Source: a virus
Lineage: Duplodnaviria > Caudoviricetes
Direction: 5' to 3' (one strand)
DNA: 34,097 nt
Virus record (IMG/VR): IMGVR_UViG_3300044267_001409
Location: 1-34,097 of that record
Shown: one piece after another, positions 2 through 7,630 of the stretch
Position numbering within the stretch: the first letter of the stretch is position 1
How the letters are laid out: the number at the start of each line of letters is the position of its first letter
Notes under the pieces: model-generated
The model's input: the letters and a program-made list of their open reading frames with translations, nothing else
Told to the model about the DNA's origin: nothing
The model's database searches: none
Position numbers and translations under genes: made by a program

Positions 2-322
2 AAGGATAAGAAAGGTTGGCTTAACCATCCCGCACGTTTAATGTGGATTGGTTATGAGAACGCACTAAAACATTATACTAATATAATGATAGAAGAATGG
101 ATTGCACGTGGATATAACAACACGATGCAAATGTATGACATAGAAGGGCCAATAGTTTATCCTCAATGGTTAGGCTATCCGGAACTGCATAAGTCACACC
201 GAATGAATCTACTACGTAAAGATTATAATTTTTACAAAGAATCATTTGTTGATGACGCACAAACGGACCTCGCAATCATAAACGAGTATGAATACTATTG
301 GCCACCGGAGAAAAAAGAATGA
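2..322 (+). CDS. Pyrimidine-dimer DNA glycosylase-like (DenV/MSMEG_6728-type) protein, 5' truncated by the window
   Basis: Frame is open from base 2: KDKKGWLNHPARLMW.GYE.AL..Y...EW..RGY...P.WLG...H.SH..NLLRKD..FY..F...YYWP is the family signature. Confidence 0.8.
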   Translation, partial: KDKKGWLNHPARLMWIGYENALKHYTNIMIEEWIARGYNNTMQMYDIEGPIVYPQWLGYPELHKSHRMNLLRKDYNFYKESFVDDAQTDLAIINEYEYYWPPEKKE

Positions 323-420
323 TAAGAGAAATAATAGTATGGATAGATAAGAAGTTTGGTTTGAACCGAACAAAGAAATTAATGATAAGACCCCGAAAAT
401 ACGGAGTAAATAAAAAATGA
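319..420 (+). CDS. 33-aa basic microprotein (MIREIIVWIDKKFGLNRTKKLMIRPRKYGVNKK)
   Basis: Fills the gap exactly, with ATGA start/stop overlaps at both ends; GGAG upstream. Confidence 0.6.
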   Translation: MIREIIVWIDKKFGLNRTKKLMIRPRKYGVNKK

Positions 421-614
421 ACCAAGACAAAGAAATAAATGAATTGAAAGAGATGTTAGCTGGTGCACAGCTAACTGAGGAAAACTTAAAGGACTACCTT
501 TTCGAGATTTGTGACATCATACACATGCAAATGTCATTAAAATATCAAGACATGTGGGTAGCAAGGATGATTGAAATAGGACTGTATGACCCCGAAGAGG
601 GGTTGGAGGTATAA
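417..614 (+). CDS. Hypothetical acidic protein, 65 aa
   Basis: ORF coupled to neighbours (ATGA, TAATG); GGAG upstream. Confidence 0.75.
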   Translation: MNQDKEINELKEMLAGAQLTEENLKDYLFEICDIIHMQMSLKYQDMWVARMIEIGLYDPEEGLEV

Positions 615-883
615 TGGTTACAACTACACCCGAAGCAGTTCACCTACATAAAATCATTTTAGATTGGTGTAGTCCACAGGTCGCACGAAGTATGTTGGAT
701 GACATGGATTTCTATGTCGCAGATATTACAGACAATGAATCATTGAAACAATCAATAAAAATGGTTAGAGAGATTATTTATGCACGAGCTGAGGAGAATG
801 AGATGATAGACGAAGAAGAGAAAGCACATGCTGAAACTTTAAAGAACATAGCTTTCCAACGGAAGATAGGCAAAGACGAATGA
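614..883 (+). CDS. Hypothetical protein, 89 aa
   Basis: GGAGGT SD and TAATG coupling. Confidence 0.8.
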   Translation: MVTTTPEAVHLHKIILDWCSPQVARSMLDDMDFYVADITDNESLKQSIKMVREIIYARAEENEMIDEEEKAHAETLKNIAFQRKIGKDE

Positions 884-963
884 GGTGCTTAAGATGTGGT
901 GGCAACTATGTTGGTATGAAGCAAGTTAATAAATTCAACTGTCCCCACTGTGGTAAACTATAA
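880..963 (+). CDS. 27-aa zinc-finger microprotein (MRCLRCGGNYVGMKQVNKFNCPHCGKL)
   Basis: CxxCG...CPxCG pattern; ATGA overlap upstream and TAATG overlap downstream. Confidence 0.7.
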   Translation: MRCLRCGGNYVGMKQVNKFNCPHCGKL

Positions 964-1070
964 TGTCTTTAGCTGAGAAACAATGTATCAGTTGTGGTAA
1001 GAGAATATCAATAGCTGAGGATGGGTTTGGTCATGGGAGATGTATATTATGCAACCTGAAGACAATTTAA
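963..1070 (+). CDS. 35-aa zinc-finger microprotein (MSLAEKQCISCGKRISIAEDGFGHGRCILCNLKTI)
   Basis: CxxCG...CxxC; TAATG coupling. Confidence 0.7.
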   Translation: MSLAEKQCISCGKRISIAEDGFGHGRCILCNLKTI

Positions 1071-1162
1071 GAAAGGAACAGATAATAGCTGGAAGGACCG
1101 TTGAAGGTATTCTATTATTTTTTCTTCTTTGGTGGGCATGGTTCGTCATAAGAGCTTACTAA
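1049..1162 (+). CDS. 37-aa single-pass membrane microprotein (MQPEDNLRKEQIIAGRTVEGILLFFLLWWAWFVIRAY)
   Basis: GGGAG upstream; hydrophobic/aromatic C-terminal stretch; stops just before the next promoter. Confidence 0.5.
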   Translation: MQPEDNLRKEQIIAGRTVEGILLFFLLWWAWFVIRAY

Positions 1163-1173
1163 GCCCCACTTAG

Positions 1174-1187
1174 CAAAGCTTTATATA
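1174..1187 (+). promoter_or_regulatory. Archaeal-type BRE-TATA promoter (CAAAGCTTTATATA)
   Basis: Intergenic; the same motif recurs at 2952, 10465 and 31543-31557 (-), each upstream of a gene block. Confidence 0.75.
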
Positions 1188-1210
1188 TCTCTAAAGGGGA
1201 GATATAATAT

Positions 1211-1244
1211 AGCAAGGTTAGTCTATACTAACCCTATCCTTGCT
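1211..1244 (+). promoter_or_regulatory. 5'-leader stem-loop (AGCAAGG-TTAG-TCTATA-CTAA-CCCTAT-CCTTGCT)
   Basis: Nested inverted repeats starting 24 nt after the end of the TATA box. Confidence 0.55.
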
Positions 1245-1257
1245 TAATGGTGCTACA

Positions 1258-1761
1258 ATGGGAAGAAAAGATACAGGAAAGAATTTCGAAAACGAAATAA
1301 GAAGAAGCCTTAAATCAAGCCGTCATATATGGTGGTTTAGGATACAAGATACAAATGACATCAACCGATTCGTTAAAATTGCTGTTGCAGAGAAGCAACC
1401 TGCCGATTTCTTCACAGTCTACAGAGGTAGACCAATTATGTTGGAGGCTAAAACTTCTCGGAATCTTACTTCTTTTCCTTTATATTATGGTAATACCCCT
1501 GCTATCGCTAAGCATCAGATAAATGAAGGTGAACGGTTAGTGAGGGCTGGTGGTATGAGTTTTATTTTAATACGAAGAGAGGAGTTTCGAAATAAGAAAA
1601 CGTATGCTTTAACCCCATCACAGGCAAAATATTTATACAGTAAAGCATTTAAAAGAAAATCTGTTAAGTGGAGCTGGTTCGATGAACATGCATATGAAGT
1701 CGAAAGATTAAAAGCACCATTGAGATGGAATTTACAAGCATTATATGAAAAAGCAATCTAA
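1258..1761 (+). CDS. recU: RecU-like Holliday junction resolvase (PD-(D/E)XK nuclease)
   Basis: GKNFE.EI, QPADF, LEAKTS, HQI..., GG.SFILI motifs; ATG 1258 follows GGTG SD. Confidence 0.8.
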   Translation: MGRKDTGKNFENEIRRSLKSSRHIWWFRIQDTNDINRFVKIAVAEKQPADFFTVYRGRPIMLEAKTSRNLTSFPLYYGNTPAIAKHQINEGERLVRAGGMSFILIRREEFRNKKTYALTPSQAKYLYSKAFKRKSVKWSWFDEHAYEVERLKAPLRWNLQALYEKAI

Positions 1762-1924
1762 AAAAAACATGAGAAAAAGAGCAACGAAAGAGCCTTATGA
1801 AGGATATACACTTCCCCCTTCAGCTGAGAAGGGTGGTAGTTTTATAGACTTTAAACAGGCTTACAGAGAAGCACCAACTAAGGTGCCTAAAAAAAGAATA
1901 GTGATAAAGAGAAGAAAGAAATGA
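1745..1924 (+). CDS. 59-aa highly basic protein (MKKQSKKNMRKRATKEPYEG...IKRRKK)
   Basis: Open frame filling the gap; ATGA overlap with the synthase gene; alternative start at 1769. Confidence 0.6.
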   Translation: MKKQSKKNMRKRATKEPYEGYTLPPSAEKGGSFIDFKQAYREAPTKVPKKRIVIKRRKK

Positions 1925-2520
1925 AAGAGATAATGAAAGAATACAGCACCACATTCTATGAGTGTTTGGATGCGTGGCCTGATGATATCAAAGAAGATAT
2001 ATACAAACTATATGCATACCTCAGAGTATGTGATGAGATGGTAGAAGGTGAGAAGACCTTACATGATTTCAAGCAGTGGAGGGAAGTCATAGAACAATTC
2101 TACGAAGTGAGTGACAAGTATCAGTTCGAAGGTGAGTGGCTCTCAGACTTTCATATAAGTATGTATCAAGACATGATGAAGAAAGAACATACTATAGTGT
2201 CTATGTTAGAATACTGTAAGGGTTCAGCTGAGTCAGTTGGTATGATGATGTCAAAGATATTAGGATGTAACCCACGCTGTGAGATTCATGCAAGAGCATT
2301 GGGTAGAGCATACCAAATAATTAATTTCATAAGAGATTACGATGAGGATGTGGCTAATGGTTACCATTACATTACTGATAACTTTAGTGCATACTTAGAA
2401 ATATTTTATCAAGATATAGACATGGGTATGGATGGTTTAGATTACATACCTAAAGAATTACAAGAGCCTATCATAATGGCTACTAAAAAATATATGGAAG
2501 TGGCAGGTGAATTCAGTTAA
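1921..2520 (+). CDS. Phytoene/squalene synthase family (CrtB/HpnD-like) head-to-head isoprenoid synthase, compact 199 aa
   Basis: YSTTFY, LYAYLRVCDEMVE (first Asp-rich motif), YC.GSAESVG.M, A.ALG.AYQ.INFIRDY.ED (second motif). Confidence 0.85.
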   Translation: MKEIMKEYSTTFYECLDAWPDDIKEDIYKLYAYLRVCDEMVEGEKTLHDFKQWREVIEQFYEVSDKYQFEGEWLSDFHISMYQDMMKKEHTIVSMLEYCKGSAESVGMMMSKILGCNPRCEIHARALGRAYQIINFIRDYDEDVANGYHYITDNFSAYLEIFYQDIDMGMDGLDYIPKELQEPIIMATKKYMEVAGEFS

Positions 2521-2767
2521 ACCACCCTACTATAAGGTATTGTGGCACAAGTGTAATAGATGTTTAACTCACTACACCAGCGAAGAACCTCATCTTAGAG
2601 CTTATCTTTGTGATGAGTGTTGGAGAGCTATACCTCATTTCACTGTGAAGAAACCTAAAAAAGAAATAAAAAAGGAAATCGATATAAATATGAAGACAAT
2701 AATCTTATATACAATCGGTAATCTAATATGTTTAGGGGTAATCGCATATTATTTGTGGTTTAAATAA
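2507..2767 (+). CDS. Zinc-finger protein with C-terminal transmembrane helix, 86 aa
   Basis: CNRC...CDEC, basic linker, IILYTIGNLICLGVIAYYLWF. Confidence 0.7.
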   Translation: MNSVKPPYYKVLWHKCNRCLTHYTSEEPHLRAYLCDECWRAIPHFTVKKPKKEIKKEIDINMKTIILYTIGNLICLGVIAYYLWFK

Positions 2768-2771
2768 AATT

Positions 2772-2873
2772 ATGACAGAATTAGAATGTTTTAAATGTCT
2801 CAAGAGAGCTTTTTTTGTAGACATAGATGGCAATAGAAGGTGTGTTCACTGCTCACCTTACAAGGAAAAATGA
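2772..2873 (+). CDS. 33-aa zinc-finger microprotein (MTELECFKCLKRAFFVDIDGNRRCVHCSPYKEK)
   Basis: CxxC...CxxC; starts 4 nt after the previous stop. Confidence 0.7.
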   Translation: MTELECFKCLKRAFFVDIDGNRRCVHCSPYKEK

Positions 2874-2874
2874 A

Positions 2875-2973
2875 ATGGACATTATACCATTAGAAATACC
2901 AATAAGAGACCAACTAAAGGTTCTCATTTTACAACTCTCAGTATGGATAGCGAAAGCCTTATATACTCAGTAG
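2875..2973 (+). CDS. Possible 32-aa microprotein (MDIIPLEIPIRDQLKVLILQLSVWIAKALYTQ)
   Basis: AAGGA upstream and fills the gap, but overlaps the next promoter. Confidence 0.3.
   Translation: MDIIPLEIPIRDQLKVLILQLSVWIAKALYTQ
2952..2965 (+). promoter_or_regulatory. Archaeal-type BRE-TATA promoter (GAAAGCCTTATATA)
   Basis: Shared motif; GGTGA SD at 2991 and ATG at 3001 follow. Confidence 0.7.
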
Positions 2974-3000
2974 TTATGGGACATTATCAAGGTGATTAAA

Positions 3001-3309
3001 ATGAATAGAAATCAACAAATAAATCTTTTGATGGAAGCTGTAAAGCACTACCAAAAGACAGGTCAGCACAAACAGGTAAGTATTCAATACAATCCTGAGA
3101 ACAGGACTCGATTCGAATTTGATTCATGGAAACATGACAAAGATTCTGAGTCTGTTAGGAAAATCCTACCCGAAGACATTAGAATATCCTCAGCAGGAAA
3201 GTTCTATGTAGTAGGTAAAGACAACAGGTATAATCTTAAACAATATACTTCTCAGTTCGCACAACACCCTCGTGCTTATAGATTAGATAGATTGGTAGTT
3301 GCGGAATAA
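3001..3309 (+). CDS. Stand-alone WYL-like domain protein
   Basis: VSIQY...RKILP..I......FYVVG.D......RAYRLDRL fits the WYL pattern (xY..R.VxP..WYL..RxFRLDRI); no HTH. Confidence 0.6.
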   Translation: MNRNQQINLLMEAVKHYQKTGQHKQVSIQYNPENRTRFEFDSWKHDKDSESVRKILPEDIRISSAGKFYVVGKDNRYNLKQYTSQFAQHPRAYRLDRLVVAE

Positions 3310-3311
3310 AT

Positions 3312-3650
3312 ATGAACGAACTATTGAACAGCTTTCTCGAAGCGGCTGAGAACAGTGATAAAATTCTCTCAGTTGAAGAACTCTTAACTGAAGATGAAAA
3401 ATTTAGTTGGGAGACTTTAGTGAAAGCATTTGACTCTATCGACGTAATGAACGTGGGTAGAGACTTAAAAAAGATATCTAAAACATATCAATTAGAACGA
3501 TGGCAAGAACTTTCTATCTTAGCTTATGTAAAGATATTAGAGTTAATGATTAGACGTGCTAAGGATGTAGGCGCTTTAGATATGATAAAAGATAATATGC
3601 CTGTCCCATCATCATCTGAGACAGATTACTCAGGGAGTATGTTCGGATGA
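3312..3650 (+). CDS. Hypothetical protein, 112 aa
   Basis: ORF within a tightly packed operon. Confidence 0.8.
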   Translation: MNELLNSFLEAAENSDKILSVEELLTEDEKFSWETLVKAFDSIDVMNVGRDLKKISKTYQLERWQELSILAYVKILELMIRRAKDVGALDMIKDNMPVPSSSETDYSGSMFG

Positions 3651-3763
3651 AGCAGTGTGGTTTATGTAGGTGTAATCTACACCCAGACTATATAAGGTAT
3701 AGAGACATCAATGGTAATCCATATTGCCAACAATGCTACACAGTTATTGGAGGACAAATATGA
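3647..3763 (+). CDS. 38-aa zinc-finger microprotein (MKQCGLCRCNLHPDYIRYRDINGNPYCQQCYTVIGGQI)
   Basis: CxxC...G.PYCxxCY (treble-clef/half-LIM-like); GGGAG SD; ATGA overlaps at both ends. Confidence 0.75.
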   Translation: MKQCGLCRCNLHPDYIRYRDINGNPYCQQCYTVIGGQI

Positions 3764-3894
3764 AAGTAGTAGTAGACAATGTAGAGATATTAGATATAAC
3801 TCTCGGTTTATATGGTAATGTTTTTGTTCGTGTTAGAGATATAGATGGGTATGAATACGCAGGTGAACTAACGGAAGTGATGGAAGATGAATGA
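3760..3894 (+). CDS. 44-aa acidic beta-rich microprotein (MKVVVDNVEILDITLGLYGNVFVRVRDIDGYEYAGELTEVMEDE)
   Basis: GGAGG SD; ATGA coupling. Confidence 0.7.
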   Translation: MKVVVDNVEILDITLGLYGNVFVRVRDIDGYEYAGELTEVMEDE

Positions 3895-5893: not shown

Positions 5894-7362
5894 AAAAATT
5901 TGAATTACATGACCTATTAAGGTATTTCCACAATGTGAGAAAGGAAGATGGAACACTGTTTCCTATATTAGGAGAAGATGCTCTAGCTTTAACATCAAGT
6001 CTTTCTTACTTATTAGAGGATACTAACTTTTGTATCAAGGCATATAGTGGAACAGGTAAGACAGTGATAATGGATGCTATTGTAAATCTACTCCCCAAAG
6101 AGTATGTATATACTATAGAACATTTATCTGAGACTGCTGTGTGGTATGCTGAGAGTGATATCAATAAGTCACGCTTTGTAGCTATACCTGAAGCACAGAA
6201 GATACCTGAAGGTGTCATGGAGATTATTAAAACATGGGCTGATGGTAGAAGGGCTACCCGTAAGAAGACTGATGTAACTATCAACACTACAGTAACACAA
6301 GTATTATTACCTAAATATGTATTAATGGCTGTAGCTGTAGAGAATGATAAAGGTAGTGCTATGTTTGATGCTGAGTTAGAACGTCGGTGTATGATTATGC
6401 ACACCAATCCAACAGTCACTCAAACTGAGAGAGTAATCAAACATAAACTATTAGCCTCGGCACTACCACCAAGTAAGATATCTGATATGACAATAGAAGA
6501 GATAGATTCTTTGAAGGCACACGTTCAAAATTGTGTAAGAGAAAGAGATGAAGATGATGCTACAGTGATTATGAATCCTTGTGCACCATTTTTATTTGAG
6601 GCAATACCATCAGCATTTCCTGTGTCAAGGTCTAAAGTTCAATACTTATTAAGATTGATAAATGCAATAGCACGATTCTATCCAGATGAGATTATTAGAA
6701 CGGAGAGAGATGGAAAGGTATATGGTCTTGTTACGCCTAAACATAACTGGCTTGGACTGAGAATATATCTCAACTCTTTTGTTGAGGAGTGTCTACACAT
6801 GCCAAGTCATGGAACGGATATACTAAAACTATTTCCAGAATCTAGATTAGATAAGTTTGGTTTTGCAGATAGTGACACAGTTAAAATGTCAGAGGGTGAG
6901 ATAAAGAAAGCTGCCAAAGCTGCTGGTTTACCCTTTACTAAACTGAGACCTGTCCTCTCAGGTCTACTAATGACTGGGTTCTTAGAAGTAGAAGATGATG
7001 GAAAAAGACAACTTTACTTTAAAAGTCCATTAATAAACGAACCAGCATCAAAAATAAACTGGAGTGAGTTAATTGAAGAAACAAAAAAGTTTGTGGGAGA
7101 AAACTGGACTGAAGTCAGTGACGAATACATTGGGCGCTGTTGTAGCAGTGTCGAGATTACTGACCCGTTTAGTGGGAACCACATTGAACTGGGTGAAAGA
7201 GCAGAGACAGCGTTAGACGTTGAAGATGCAGAGTATCCTGACATATTTAAAAGTGCTAAGGATGCAAAGATTAAAGACTATGAGTCTTTTCTAACTAAAG
7301 CAGAAGGAGATTATACTGATGAAGAAGAAGAATCAATCAGGCAATATTACAAGGAAAATTAA
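5890..7362 (+). CDS. AAA+ P-loop ATPase, probable MCM-like replicative helicase
   Basis: Walker A AYSGTGKT, Walker B-like FVAIPE, Arg finger ELERRC, wHTH-like C-terminal region; ATGA coupling at 5890. Confidence 0.7.
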   Translation: MKKFELHDLLRYFHNVRKEDGTLFPILGEDALALTSSLSYLLEDTNFCIKAYSGTGKTVIMDAIVNLLPKEYVYTIEHLSETAVWYAESDINKSRFVAIPEAQKIPEGVMEIIKTWADGRRATRKKTDVTINTTVTQVLLPKYVLMAVAVENDKGSAMFDAELERRCMIMHTNPTVTQTERVIKHKLLASALPPSKISDMTIEEIDSLKAHVQNCVRERDEDDATVIMNPCAPFLFEAIPSAFPVSRSKVQYLLRLINAIARFYPDEIIRTERDGKVYGLVTPKHNWLGLRIYLNSFVEECLHMPSHGTDILKLFPESRLDKFGFADSDTVKMSEGEIKKAAKAAGLPFTKLRPVLSGLLMTGFLEVEDDGKRQLYFKSPLINEPASKINWSELIEETKKFVGENWTEVSDEYIGRCCSSVEITDPFSGNHIELGERAETALDVEDAEYPDIFKSAKDAKIKDYESFLTKAEGDYTDEEEESIRQYYKEN

Positions 7363-7630
7363 ACTCCCTAAAAAGGATGAGATGTTTGCTGTCGTAGTAG
7401 AGATGTCAGGTGGTTCAAGGATGAGAGCCTTATGCGCAGATAATAAAACCCGCATGATTAGAATTGGTGGTAAACTAAAGAAAAGAATGTGGTGTAGAGA
7501 GAATGATTTAATTATAGTTAAGCCATGGGTTATACAGAGTGACCAAAAGGCTGACTTAGTATATAGATATCTCCCTACTGAGAGAAACAGGGTTCTCCAT
7601 AAACTCCCTGAAGGAATAAATATATGGTGA
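7319..7630 (+). CDS. eif1a: Archaeal-type translation initiation factor 1A
   Basis: LP...E.FAVV..M.GGSRM...C.D.KTR..RI.GK.KKRMW.RE.D.IIV.PW..Q.D.KAD.VYRY. Confidence 0.93.
   Translation: MKKKNQSGNITRKIKLPKKDEMFAVVVEMSGGSRMRALCADNKTRMIRIGGKLKKRMWCRENDLIIVKPWVIQSDQKADLVYRYLPTERNRVLHKLPEGINIW

Follow-up and report, generated by a model that had tools for sequence, protein, structure and literature searches.

What do five very short open reading frames (ORFs), each with two CxxC cysteine pairs, contribute to the accessory region of a marine tailed virus, and do they belong to one system? They lie in a window of 34,097 nucleotides (nt), the whole stretch of DNA analysed here (positions 1 to 34,097 of IMG/VR record IMGVR_UViG_3300044267_001409), which represents about half (49%) of the viral genome. 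The original prediction regarded them as a hidden, translationally coupled array of zinc-finger microproteins, diversified to mimic zinc ribbons of the host. Our data lead us to a different explanation, namely that these are five unrelated, conserved microgenes scattered in the non-structural arm, each likely to encode a one-zinc adaptor with a host or viral partner of its own; we consider this explanation probable, though well short of certain. The five, here called ZF1 to ZF5, are as follows (aa, amino acids):

880..963, + strand: ZF1, 27 aa, CxxCG-x13-CPHCG
963..1070, + strand: ZF2, 35 aa, CxxC-x15-CxxC, conserved KRIS.AE
2507..2767, + strand: ZF3, 86 aa, CxxC-x15-CxxC, invariant W/H/Y, basic linker, C-terminal membrane helix
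2772..2873, + strand: ZF4, 33 aa, CxxC-x14-CxxC, predicted beta-hairpin zinc ribbon
3647..3763, + strand: ZF5, 38 aa, CxxC-x19-CxxC

The four ORFs of 27-38 aa and the longer ORF at 2507-2767 are all present as predicted, with two CxxC pairs each, and they are the sole short two-CxxC ORFs in the window, both strands having been checked. Their sequences are indeed unrelated to each other (HHalign probability 0.5-38% over all 10 pairs), and the membrane anchor proposed for ZF3 is seen as a C-terminal hydrophobic helix in 22/22 aligned members of its family. The peptides are basic, with pI values of 8.4-9.5, and CxxCG motifs number two in ZF1, one in ZF2 and zero in ZF3, ZF4 and ZF5. That gene callers miss such genes was also correct, as exact look-ups found none of the four window peptides shorter than 40 aa among public gene calls. 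The same held for two non-finger ORFs of 32-33 aa (0/2), whereas all eight ORFs of at least 44 aa, including ZF3, had been called; the missing gene calls in this genome are a size effect. Members in relatives are sometimes called, with 27 ZF1-like, 30 short ZF4-like (of 33 matches) and 441 ZF3-like proteins.

The missing calls are what would favor the view that the four short ORFs arose by chance and have no function, a view that is already refuted by the conservation data and to which we assign practically no probability. Among Markov simulations of the region (n=1600) one such ORF on the + strand appeared in five and two appeared in none, and chance accounts for at most one of the five. For comparison we used the resolvase gene found downstream of ZF2 to fetch 25 loci, 24 of which are true relatives and some of which end early. 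Over these loci and the first 8 kb of the window, the coding strand has 131 such ORFs and the opposite strand has 0. To build the families, every ORF of the loci was searched with iterated profiles and the matches were then sorted by hand, ZF1 being split by motif from a second family, one stray ZF2 match dropped and ZF2 members taken out of ZF4. Among the 24 loci ZF1 is present in 10, ZF2 in 23, ZF3 in 22, ZF4 in 21 and ZF5 in 18. All four cysteines are invariant in each of the five families, even as synonymous changes between TGT and TGC are seen. Residues other than cysteine are conserved as well: Y, M, F, P, H and G in ZF1; S, with near-invariant K, I, A and E, in ZF2; Y, W, three H, S, A and P in ZF3; a single G in ZF4; and L, three Y, D and G in ZF5. 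No RNA data set is listed as containing the window itself. RNA-library contigs of relatives, mostly less than 90% alike and from one library, span parts of ZF3 and ZF5 and not ZF1 or ZF2; as they cannot show transcription, they were left unused.

The original prediction had proposed conservation and dN/dS in related viruses as its test. Frames and cysteines are kept, and the ratio of nonsynonymous to synonymous differences (pN/pS), determined for the window and its ten closest loci over pairs at least 60% identical, is 0.25 for ZF1, 0.32 for ZF2, 0.23 for ZF3, 0.32 for ZF4 and 0.24 for ZF5, with bootstrap upper limits of 0.32-0.47, all well below 1. Fifteen neighboring genes gave values of 0.15-0.41. 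Selection on the fingers is ordinary purifying selection, comparable to that on their neighbors, and not diversifying as the notion of a diversified set would have it.

The proposed single array that tiles the gaps between genes is not what we find, as the five fingers occupy 672 of 3576 nt (19%) amid 12 other genes. The ATGA or TAATG overlaps thought to join most of them occur at three of the five starts (880, 963 and 3647), while ZF4 starts after a 4-nt gap and ZF3 overlaps its predecessor by 14 nt; nor is such coupling special to fingers, for 5/12 non-finger genes of the region overlap likewise. Counts of these junctions across loci were discarded since any ATG followed by A registers as 'ATGA'. 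Two promoter-like motifs of archaeal type, each comprising a B recognition element (BRE) and a TATA box, lie between the fingers:

1176..1187, + strand: BRE-TATA promoter-like motif AAGCTTTATATA, upstream of the RecU-like resolvase gene, putative promoter
2954..2965, + strand: second BRE-TATA promoter-like motif AAGCCTTATATA, upstream of the 3001-3309 gene, putative promoter

A motif of the AAGCTTTATATA type is found no more than 200 nt upstream of the resolvase in 24/25 sequences, and a BRE-TATA-like motif precedes the 3001 gene in 19/24. The promoter assignment rests on this positional conservation because the count of TATA 12-mers with two mismatches over the whole window is not above chance (16 compared to 10.4 expected); a sigma-70 promoter scan also gave chance level. 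The two motifs divide the fingers into at least three blocks, and since they are conserved and split the region, ZF1-ZF2, ZF3-ZF4 and ZF5 likely constitute three transcription units. The intergenic stretch 1160-1257, in which the first motif resides, is conserved beyond the needs of a bare promoter, in that TAAGC precedes the TATA motif and AGCA/TGCT segments follow, and may hold regulator sites or an origin. The gene directly behind the second motif (3001-3309, 102 aa) is present in 23/24 loci and shows a faint match to the WYL domain (E 0.016).

ZF1 is a mobile, optional and exchangeable cassette, and ZF2-ZF5 make up a fairly stable set. ZF1 precedes ZF2 in the window and in 2 loci and is positioned further downstream in 8 loci, and the slot upstream of ZF2 is taken in relatives by ZF1, by another finger with a CPYCG motif (5 loci), by a membrane peptide (3) or by a DNA ligase (5). 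This slot-mate finger, CxxxxC...CPYCG of 36 aa (L004:908-1015, and also in L002, L003, L005 and L008), never occurs together with ZF1 within the fetched stretches of its five loci. When 29 loci and three near-complete records were searched with a relaxed pattern, 175 peptides in 49 clusters were obtained, about 10 of which look like spurious frames, indicating that genes of this kind form a large and changing stock in the lineage. The accessory arm of the near-complete relative G004 contains 7/7 of its such ORFs, just as all five fingers of the window lie at 880-3763 and none in the structural arm. In the more distant relatives L039, L040 and L044 ZF1 is surrounded by closely packed genes for other cysteine-rich microproteins, an arrangement nearer to a true array than that of the window.

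Small CxxC proteins are a known feature of tailed viruses of archaea, and the present fingers resemble them in being shorter than 100 aa (27-86 aa, with two CxxC each) and encoded outside the virion assembly module. In the HF1-group haloviruses Serpecor1 and Hardycor2, 14/23 and 12/21 CxxC proteins are smaller than 100 aa and of unknown function, and zero CxxC proteins are encoded in the 26.4-kb morphogenesis region (PMC7230728). Hardycor1 encodes ten hypothetical CxxC proteins, one of which (104 aa) ends, like ZF3, in a C-terminal membrane helix, and start/stop overlaps involve half of its genes (PMC7911831). Many unrelated CxxC proteins of less than 100 aa, a location outside the virion module and tightly overlapping genes are thus common to these haloviruses and to the virus studied here, which differs in belonging to a marine lineage with basic proteins, in that its fingers are mostly much shorter (27-38 aa) and match nothing in PHROGs under E 0.04, and in that conservation and selection were measured for the marine fingers. 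The C(P)XCG micro-proteins defined in Haloferax likewise share with our fingers a length below 70 aa, two cysteine pairs and a single predicted zinc site, yet their definition (two C(P)XCG in less than 70 aa) fits ZF1 alone, and the present fingers are viral. The design is the same as that of the halovirus CxxC small proteins and not one mimicry system; the pattern of small CxxC genes is already known from haloviruses, and the five families themselves are new.

We propose that host RNA polymerase would transcribe the gene blocks from TATA promoters as polycistronic messages and that the small genes, coupled at their starts and stops in the manner of their neighbors, would be translated by re-initiation as these are. 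Each peptide would then fold on one zinc, and its conserved residues would bind one partner during infection, the invariant residues other than cysteine pointing to roles in protein binding. The finger of ZF3 is likely kept at the membrane, as it is conserved while the sequence of the anchor varies. Four points weigh against this proposal. Several of the C(P)XCG proteins of haloarchaea do not bind zinc (PMC11241148); the basic character of the peptides means that they could also bind nucleic acids; when the 60%-identity filter is lifted higher pN/pS values are obtained, namely 0.50 for both ZF2 and ZF4 and 0.36 for ZF3; and the archaeal host is itself deduced from gene content.

The genes that bear on the identity of the virus and of its host are these:

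left arm: PolB, class II ribonucleotide reductase, RecU-like resolvase, phytoene-synthase-like gene, Hsp20, GT4 glycosyltransferase, aIF-1A
right arm: tape measure and other tail genes
7319..7630, + strand: aIF-1A, translation initiation factor of archaeal type encoded by the virus (NCBIfam NF003084, 107.5 bits; cut-off 91)

The tape measure protein found in the window identifies the virus as tailed. Its host is probably an archaeon, judging from the genes, because aIF-1A passes the archaeal NCBIfam cut-off, its closest solved relatives are archaeal (PDB matches at E 1e-23 to 1e-20, compared to 1e-11 for eukaryotic ones) and archaeal-type BRE-TATA motifs precede gene blocks; the best-fitting model for Hsp20 is also archaeal. 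Near-complete relatives measure 67-81 kb, in the range of groups C or E of the magroviruses (Magrovirales, viruses of Poseidoniales), and the PolB, GT4, VWA/CobT plus AAA and 2OG-Fe(II) genes agree with the published description of group E, whereas the chaperonin described for that group is absent from 5/5 near-complete relatives (PMC11706807). With this gene fit set against the missing chaperonin, a host among Poseidoniales is suggested and not more. Neither 'zinc' nor aIF-1A is mentioned in the magrovirus passages searched, and we found no paper on such finger genes in magroviruses, subscription papers being outside the search. PolB matched annotated phages at 22-25% only, and, apart from one weak match, scanning species genomes for aIF-1A returned only a stretch of virus-like sequence within a Maricaulis assembly. 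The aIF-1A of that assembly (L026, NZMJ01000097.1) is 89% identical to the viral one, and the sequence is probably a misbinned viral contig that gives rise to a bacterial label in NCBI nr. At least 295 proteins are related to aIF-1A, an archaeal factor carried across this virus lineage. The window opens within a gene for a pyrimidine dimer DNA glycosylase (Pfam PF03013; 2-322, cut by the window start), and its phytoene/squalene-synthase-like (SQS) gene (1921-2520, 199 aa) is present in 16/24 loci.

ZF2 and ZF3 match nothing consistently (no consistent family was found for ZF2 in the Pfam scan), ZF2, ZF3 and ZF4 had no PDB sequence match below E 0.02, for ZF1 and ZF3 the ESM Atlas returned only unnamed clusters or weak named ones, and PADLOC found no matches for 10 proteins. 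ZF5, on the other hand, seems to resemble half of a LIM domain, of the treble-clef type: 13/18 members match Pfam LIM (PF00412) and fit one of its fingers, including the D-G-x-P-Y-C-x2-C-Y end, and the PDB entry 2DAR is matched at E 0.006. A LIM domain has two fingers, whereas ZF5 is a single one and its Pfam matches remain below the cut-off.

That the fingers are diversified mimics of the Rpo12, TFB and TFS zinc ribbons of the host, seizing its RNA polymerase or blocking defence, was the original prediction, and we now regard it as very doubtful. Cysteine spacing is similar in the TFB/TFIIB/Brf1 ribbon (PF08271) and in Rpo12/RpoP (PRK00398), and ZF4 is predicted to form a hairpin ribbon (pLDDT 75) whose sole VIA-align match is residues 1-29 of 6cnb_R (Z 2.1, root-mean-square deviation 1.7, 26 aligned), which we take to be the Brf1/TFIIB-type ribbon of a Brf1-TBP fusion chain; a model this small says little, and Foldseek gave nothing for it at E 0.001, a second look being also empty. 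One of 20 ZF4 members matches PF08271 at E 3.3e-4, the window's own ZF4 not being the one, and RpoP is matched by 4/15 ZF1 members at E 0.002 or weaker and by the slot-mate finger at 5.5e-4. All these matches are sporadic, fall far short of the cut-offs and are not consistent among members of a family; the curated cut-offs of the Rpo12, TFB and TFS families (84-89 bits for Rpo12/RpoP) are not reached by any member, and TFS gave no match in the Pfam or NCBIfam scans. The fingers are without B-reader and cyclin domains. Rpo12 is a protein of 44-53 aa with a ribbon and a C-terminal extension that docks on the polymerase, and this part is missing from ZF1, which ends 3 residues past its last cysteine. 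Similarly, the C-terminal ribbon of TFS/TFIIS has a conserved acidic pair at the tip of its hairpin, and the acidic residues of the ZF4 hairpin are not invariant, D being found in 6 and 15 of 22 members. ZF5 is LIM-like and not ribbon-like, and diversifying selection is lacking. There is a precedent in the viral RNA polymerase inhibitor RIP, which mimics part of TFB (PMC9501531), but RIP is a helical bundle and not a zinc ribbon. As a set mimicking transcription factors the fingers find little support in these comparisons. It is also unlikely, if slightly less so, that the fingers serve the virus's own programme, either as small regulators that bind DNA or RNA or as accessory subunits of neighboring viral enzymes (the RecU-like resolvase, SSB or the phytoene-synthase-like enzyme). 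The basic pI would fit such a role, as would stable positions (ZF2 just ahead of the promoter of the resolvase, ZF3-ZF4 within the RecU/SQS block), and zinc-finger regulators cited in the literature include haloarchaeal Brz and AFV1p06 (PMC7230728). Yet neighborhoods shift, with ZF1 and ZF5 mobile and ZF3 located elsewhere in G005, loci that lack the SQS gene (L016-L018, L021 and L022) retain ZF3 and ZF4, and no match to a DNA-binding family was obtained.

The best and only specific resemblance to a host protein is that of ZF1 to aS21/HVO_2753, and it raises the possibility that ZF1 derives from aS21 by truncation or mimics it, so that ZF1 would bind the host 30S subunit or partners of aS21 and, with the viral aIF-1A, bias or shut down host translation, the other four fingers being unrelated adaptors. 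The host family (PRK14890; Pfam PF07754, formerly DUF1610) comprises proteins of 55-65 aa with four motifs; ZF1 lines up with the first two of these C(P)xCG motifs, sharing G-M and F-x-C-P-x-C-G, though its spacer is one residue longer. PRK14890 is matched by 15/15 ZF1 members (best E 2e-5) and HVO_2753 by 14/15, compared to 0/30 control viral two-CxxC peptides at E 0.02, and the top PDB match is HVO_2753 itself (6YDH, E 2e-5). The invariant G-M, F and CPxCG of ZF1 align with the host family, whose non-halophile-type member L144 reads CxxCG-x2-LVGM-x4-F-x-CPxCG; against L144, 13/14 ZF1 peptides score higher than every one of the 161 other viral fingers. One ZF1 homologue is labelled 'DUF1610 family' by JGI. 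Translation control is a lead for ZF1 because the virus also encodes aIF-1A, and an archaeal virus is known to carry a ribosomal protein, L21e (PMC8651126). All family matches are, however, below cut-off, at about 20 bits compared to cut-offs of 61, 80 and 33.2, and span only positions 11-35 of the 61 in the model. aS21 is a two-knuckle protein at the eS21 site (PMC7005279), and the members seen in ribosome structures, such as the thermococcal 6SW9 chain C, which is taken to be aS21, match ZF1 at E 0.06-0.7 only. The GM form is haloarchaeal-looking in 118/120 metagenome matches, the remainder being one non-halophile-type member and one unrelated sequence. A pattern derived from ZF1 served to choose the host set, which makes the comparison with L144 and a profile comparison giving 96% partly circular, and as one control finger matches the RpoP model at E 5.5e-4, an E near 1e-3 is attainable by cysteine spacing alone. 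ZF1 holds motifs 1 and 2 only, and its fold must differ if the host protein pairs motifs 1+3 and 2+4, as we presume. No full-length viral aS21 was found in the searches made, and ZF1 is absent from 14/24 loci. The structure models weigh little here: that of ZF1 (pLDDT 70), too small to say much, had no Foldseek or VIA match, and a predicted complex of a ZF1 homologue with Thermoplasma uS2, uS5 and zinc scored 0.28, compared to a mark of 0.32, with controls not folded, and bears neither way. Taken together, the likeness of ZF1 to the N-terminal half of aS21/HVO_2753 appears to exceed cysteine spacing, and true homology is close to an even call. A role in ribosome binding is doubtful, and derivation from or mimicry of aS21 we hold to be unlikely, although not so unlikely as the regulator reading above. 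Somewhat less likely again is the fuller scenario in which marine archaeal viruses captured half of aS21 and cut it to 27 residues that act in the 30S subunit with aIF-1A to redirect translation, relatives exchanging it in the slot upstream of ZF2 for the Rpo12-like finger, whereby the slot would offer alternative decoys of host zinc ribbons. We retain the explanation of five separate one-zinc adaptors as the probable one.

The marine archaeal virus group to which this genome belongs is abundant but uncultured, and our results add to it five uncatalogued gene families, four of which fall below the size at which genes were called in this genome. They also carry over to the ocean a pattern of numerous CxxC microproteins described for haloviruses, and add evidence for selection; as the general pattern was already known, the surprise is modest. 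A review of archaeal virus-host conflict names only two direct inhibitors of RNA polymerase (PMC9501531). Should ZF1 prove to bind the archaeal 30S subunit, a peptide of 27 residues would represent a new route of host takeover and would provide a probe of aS21 function.

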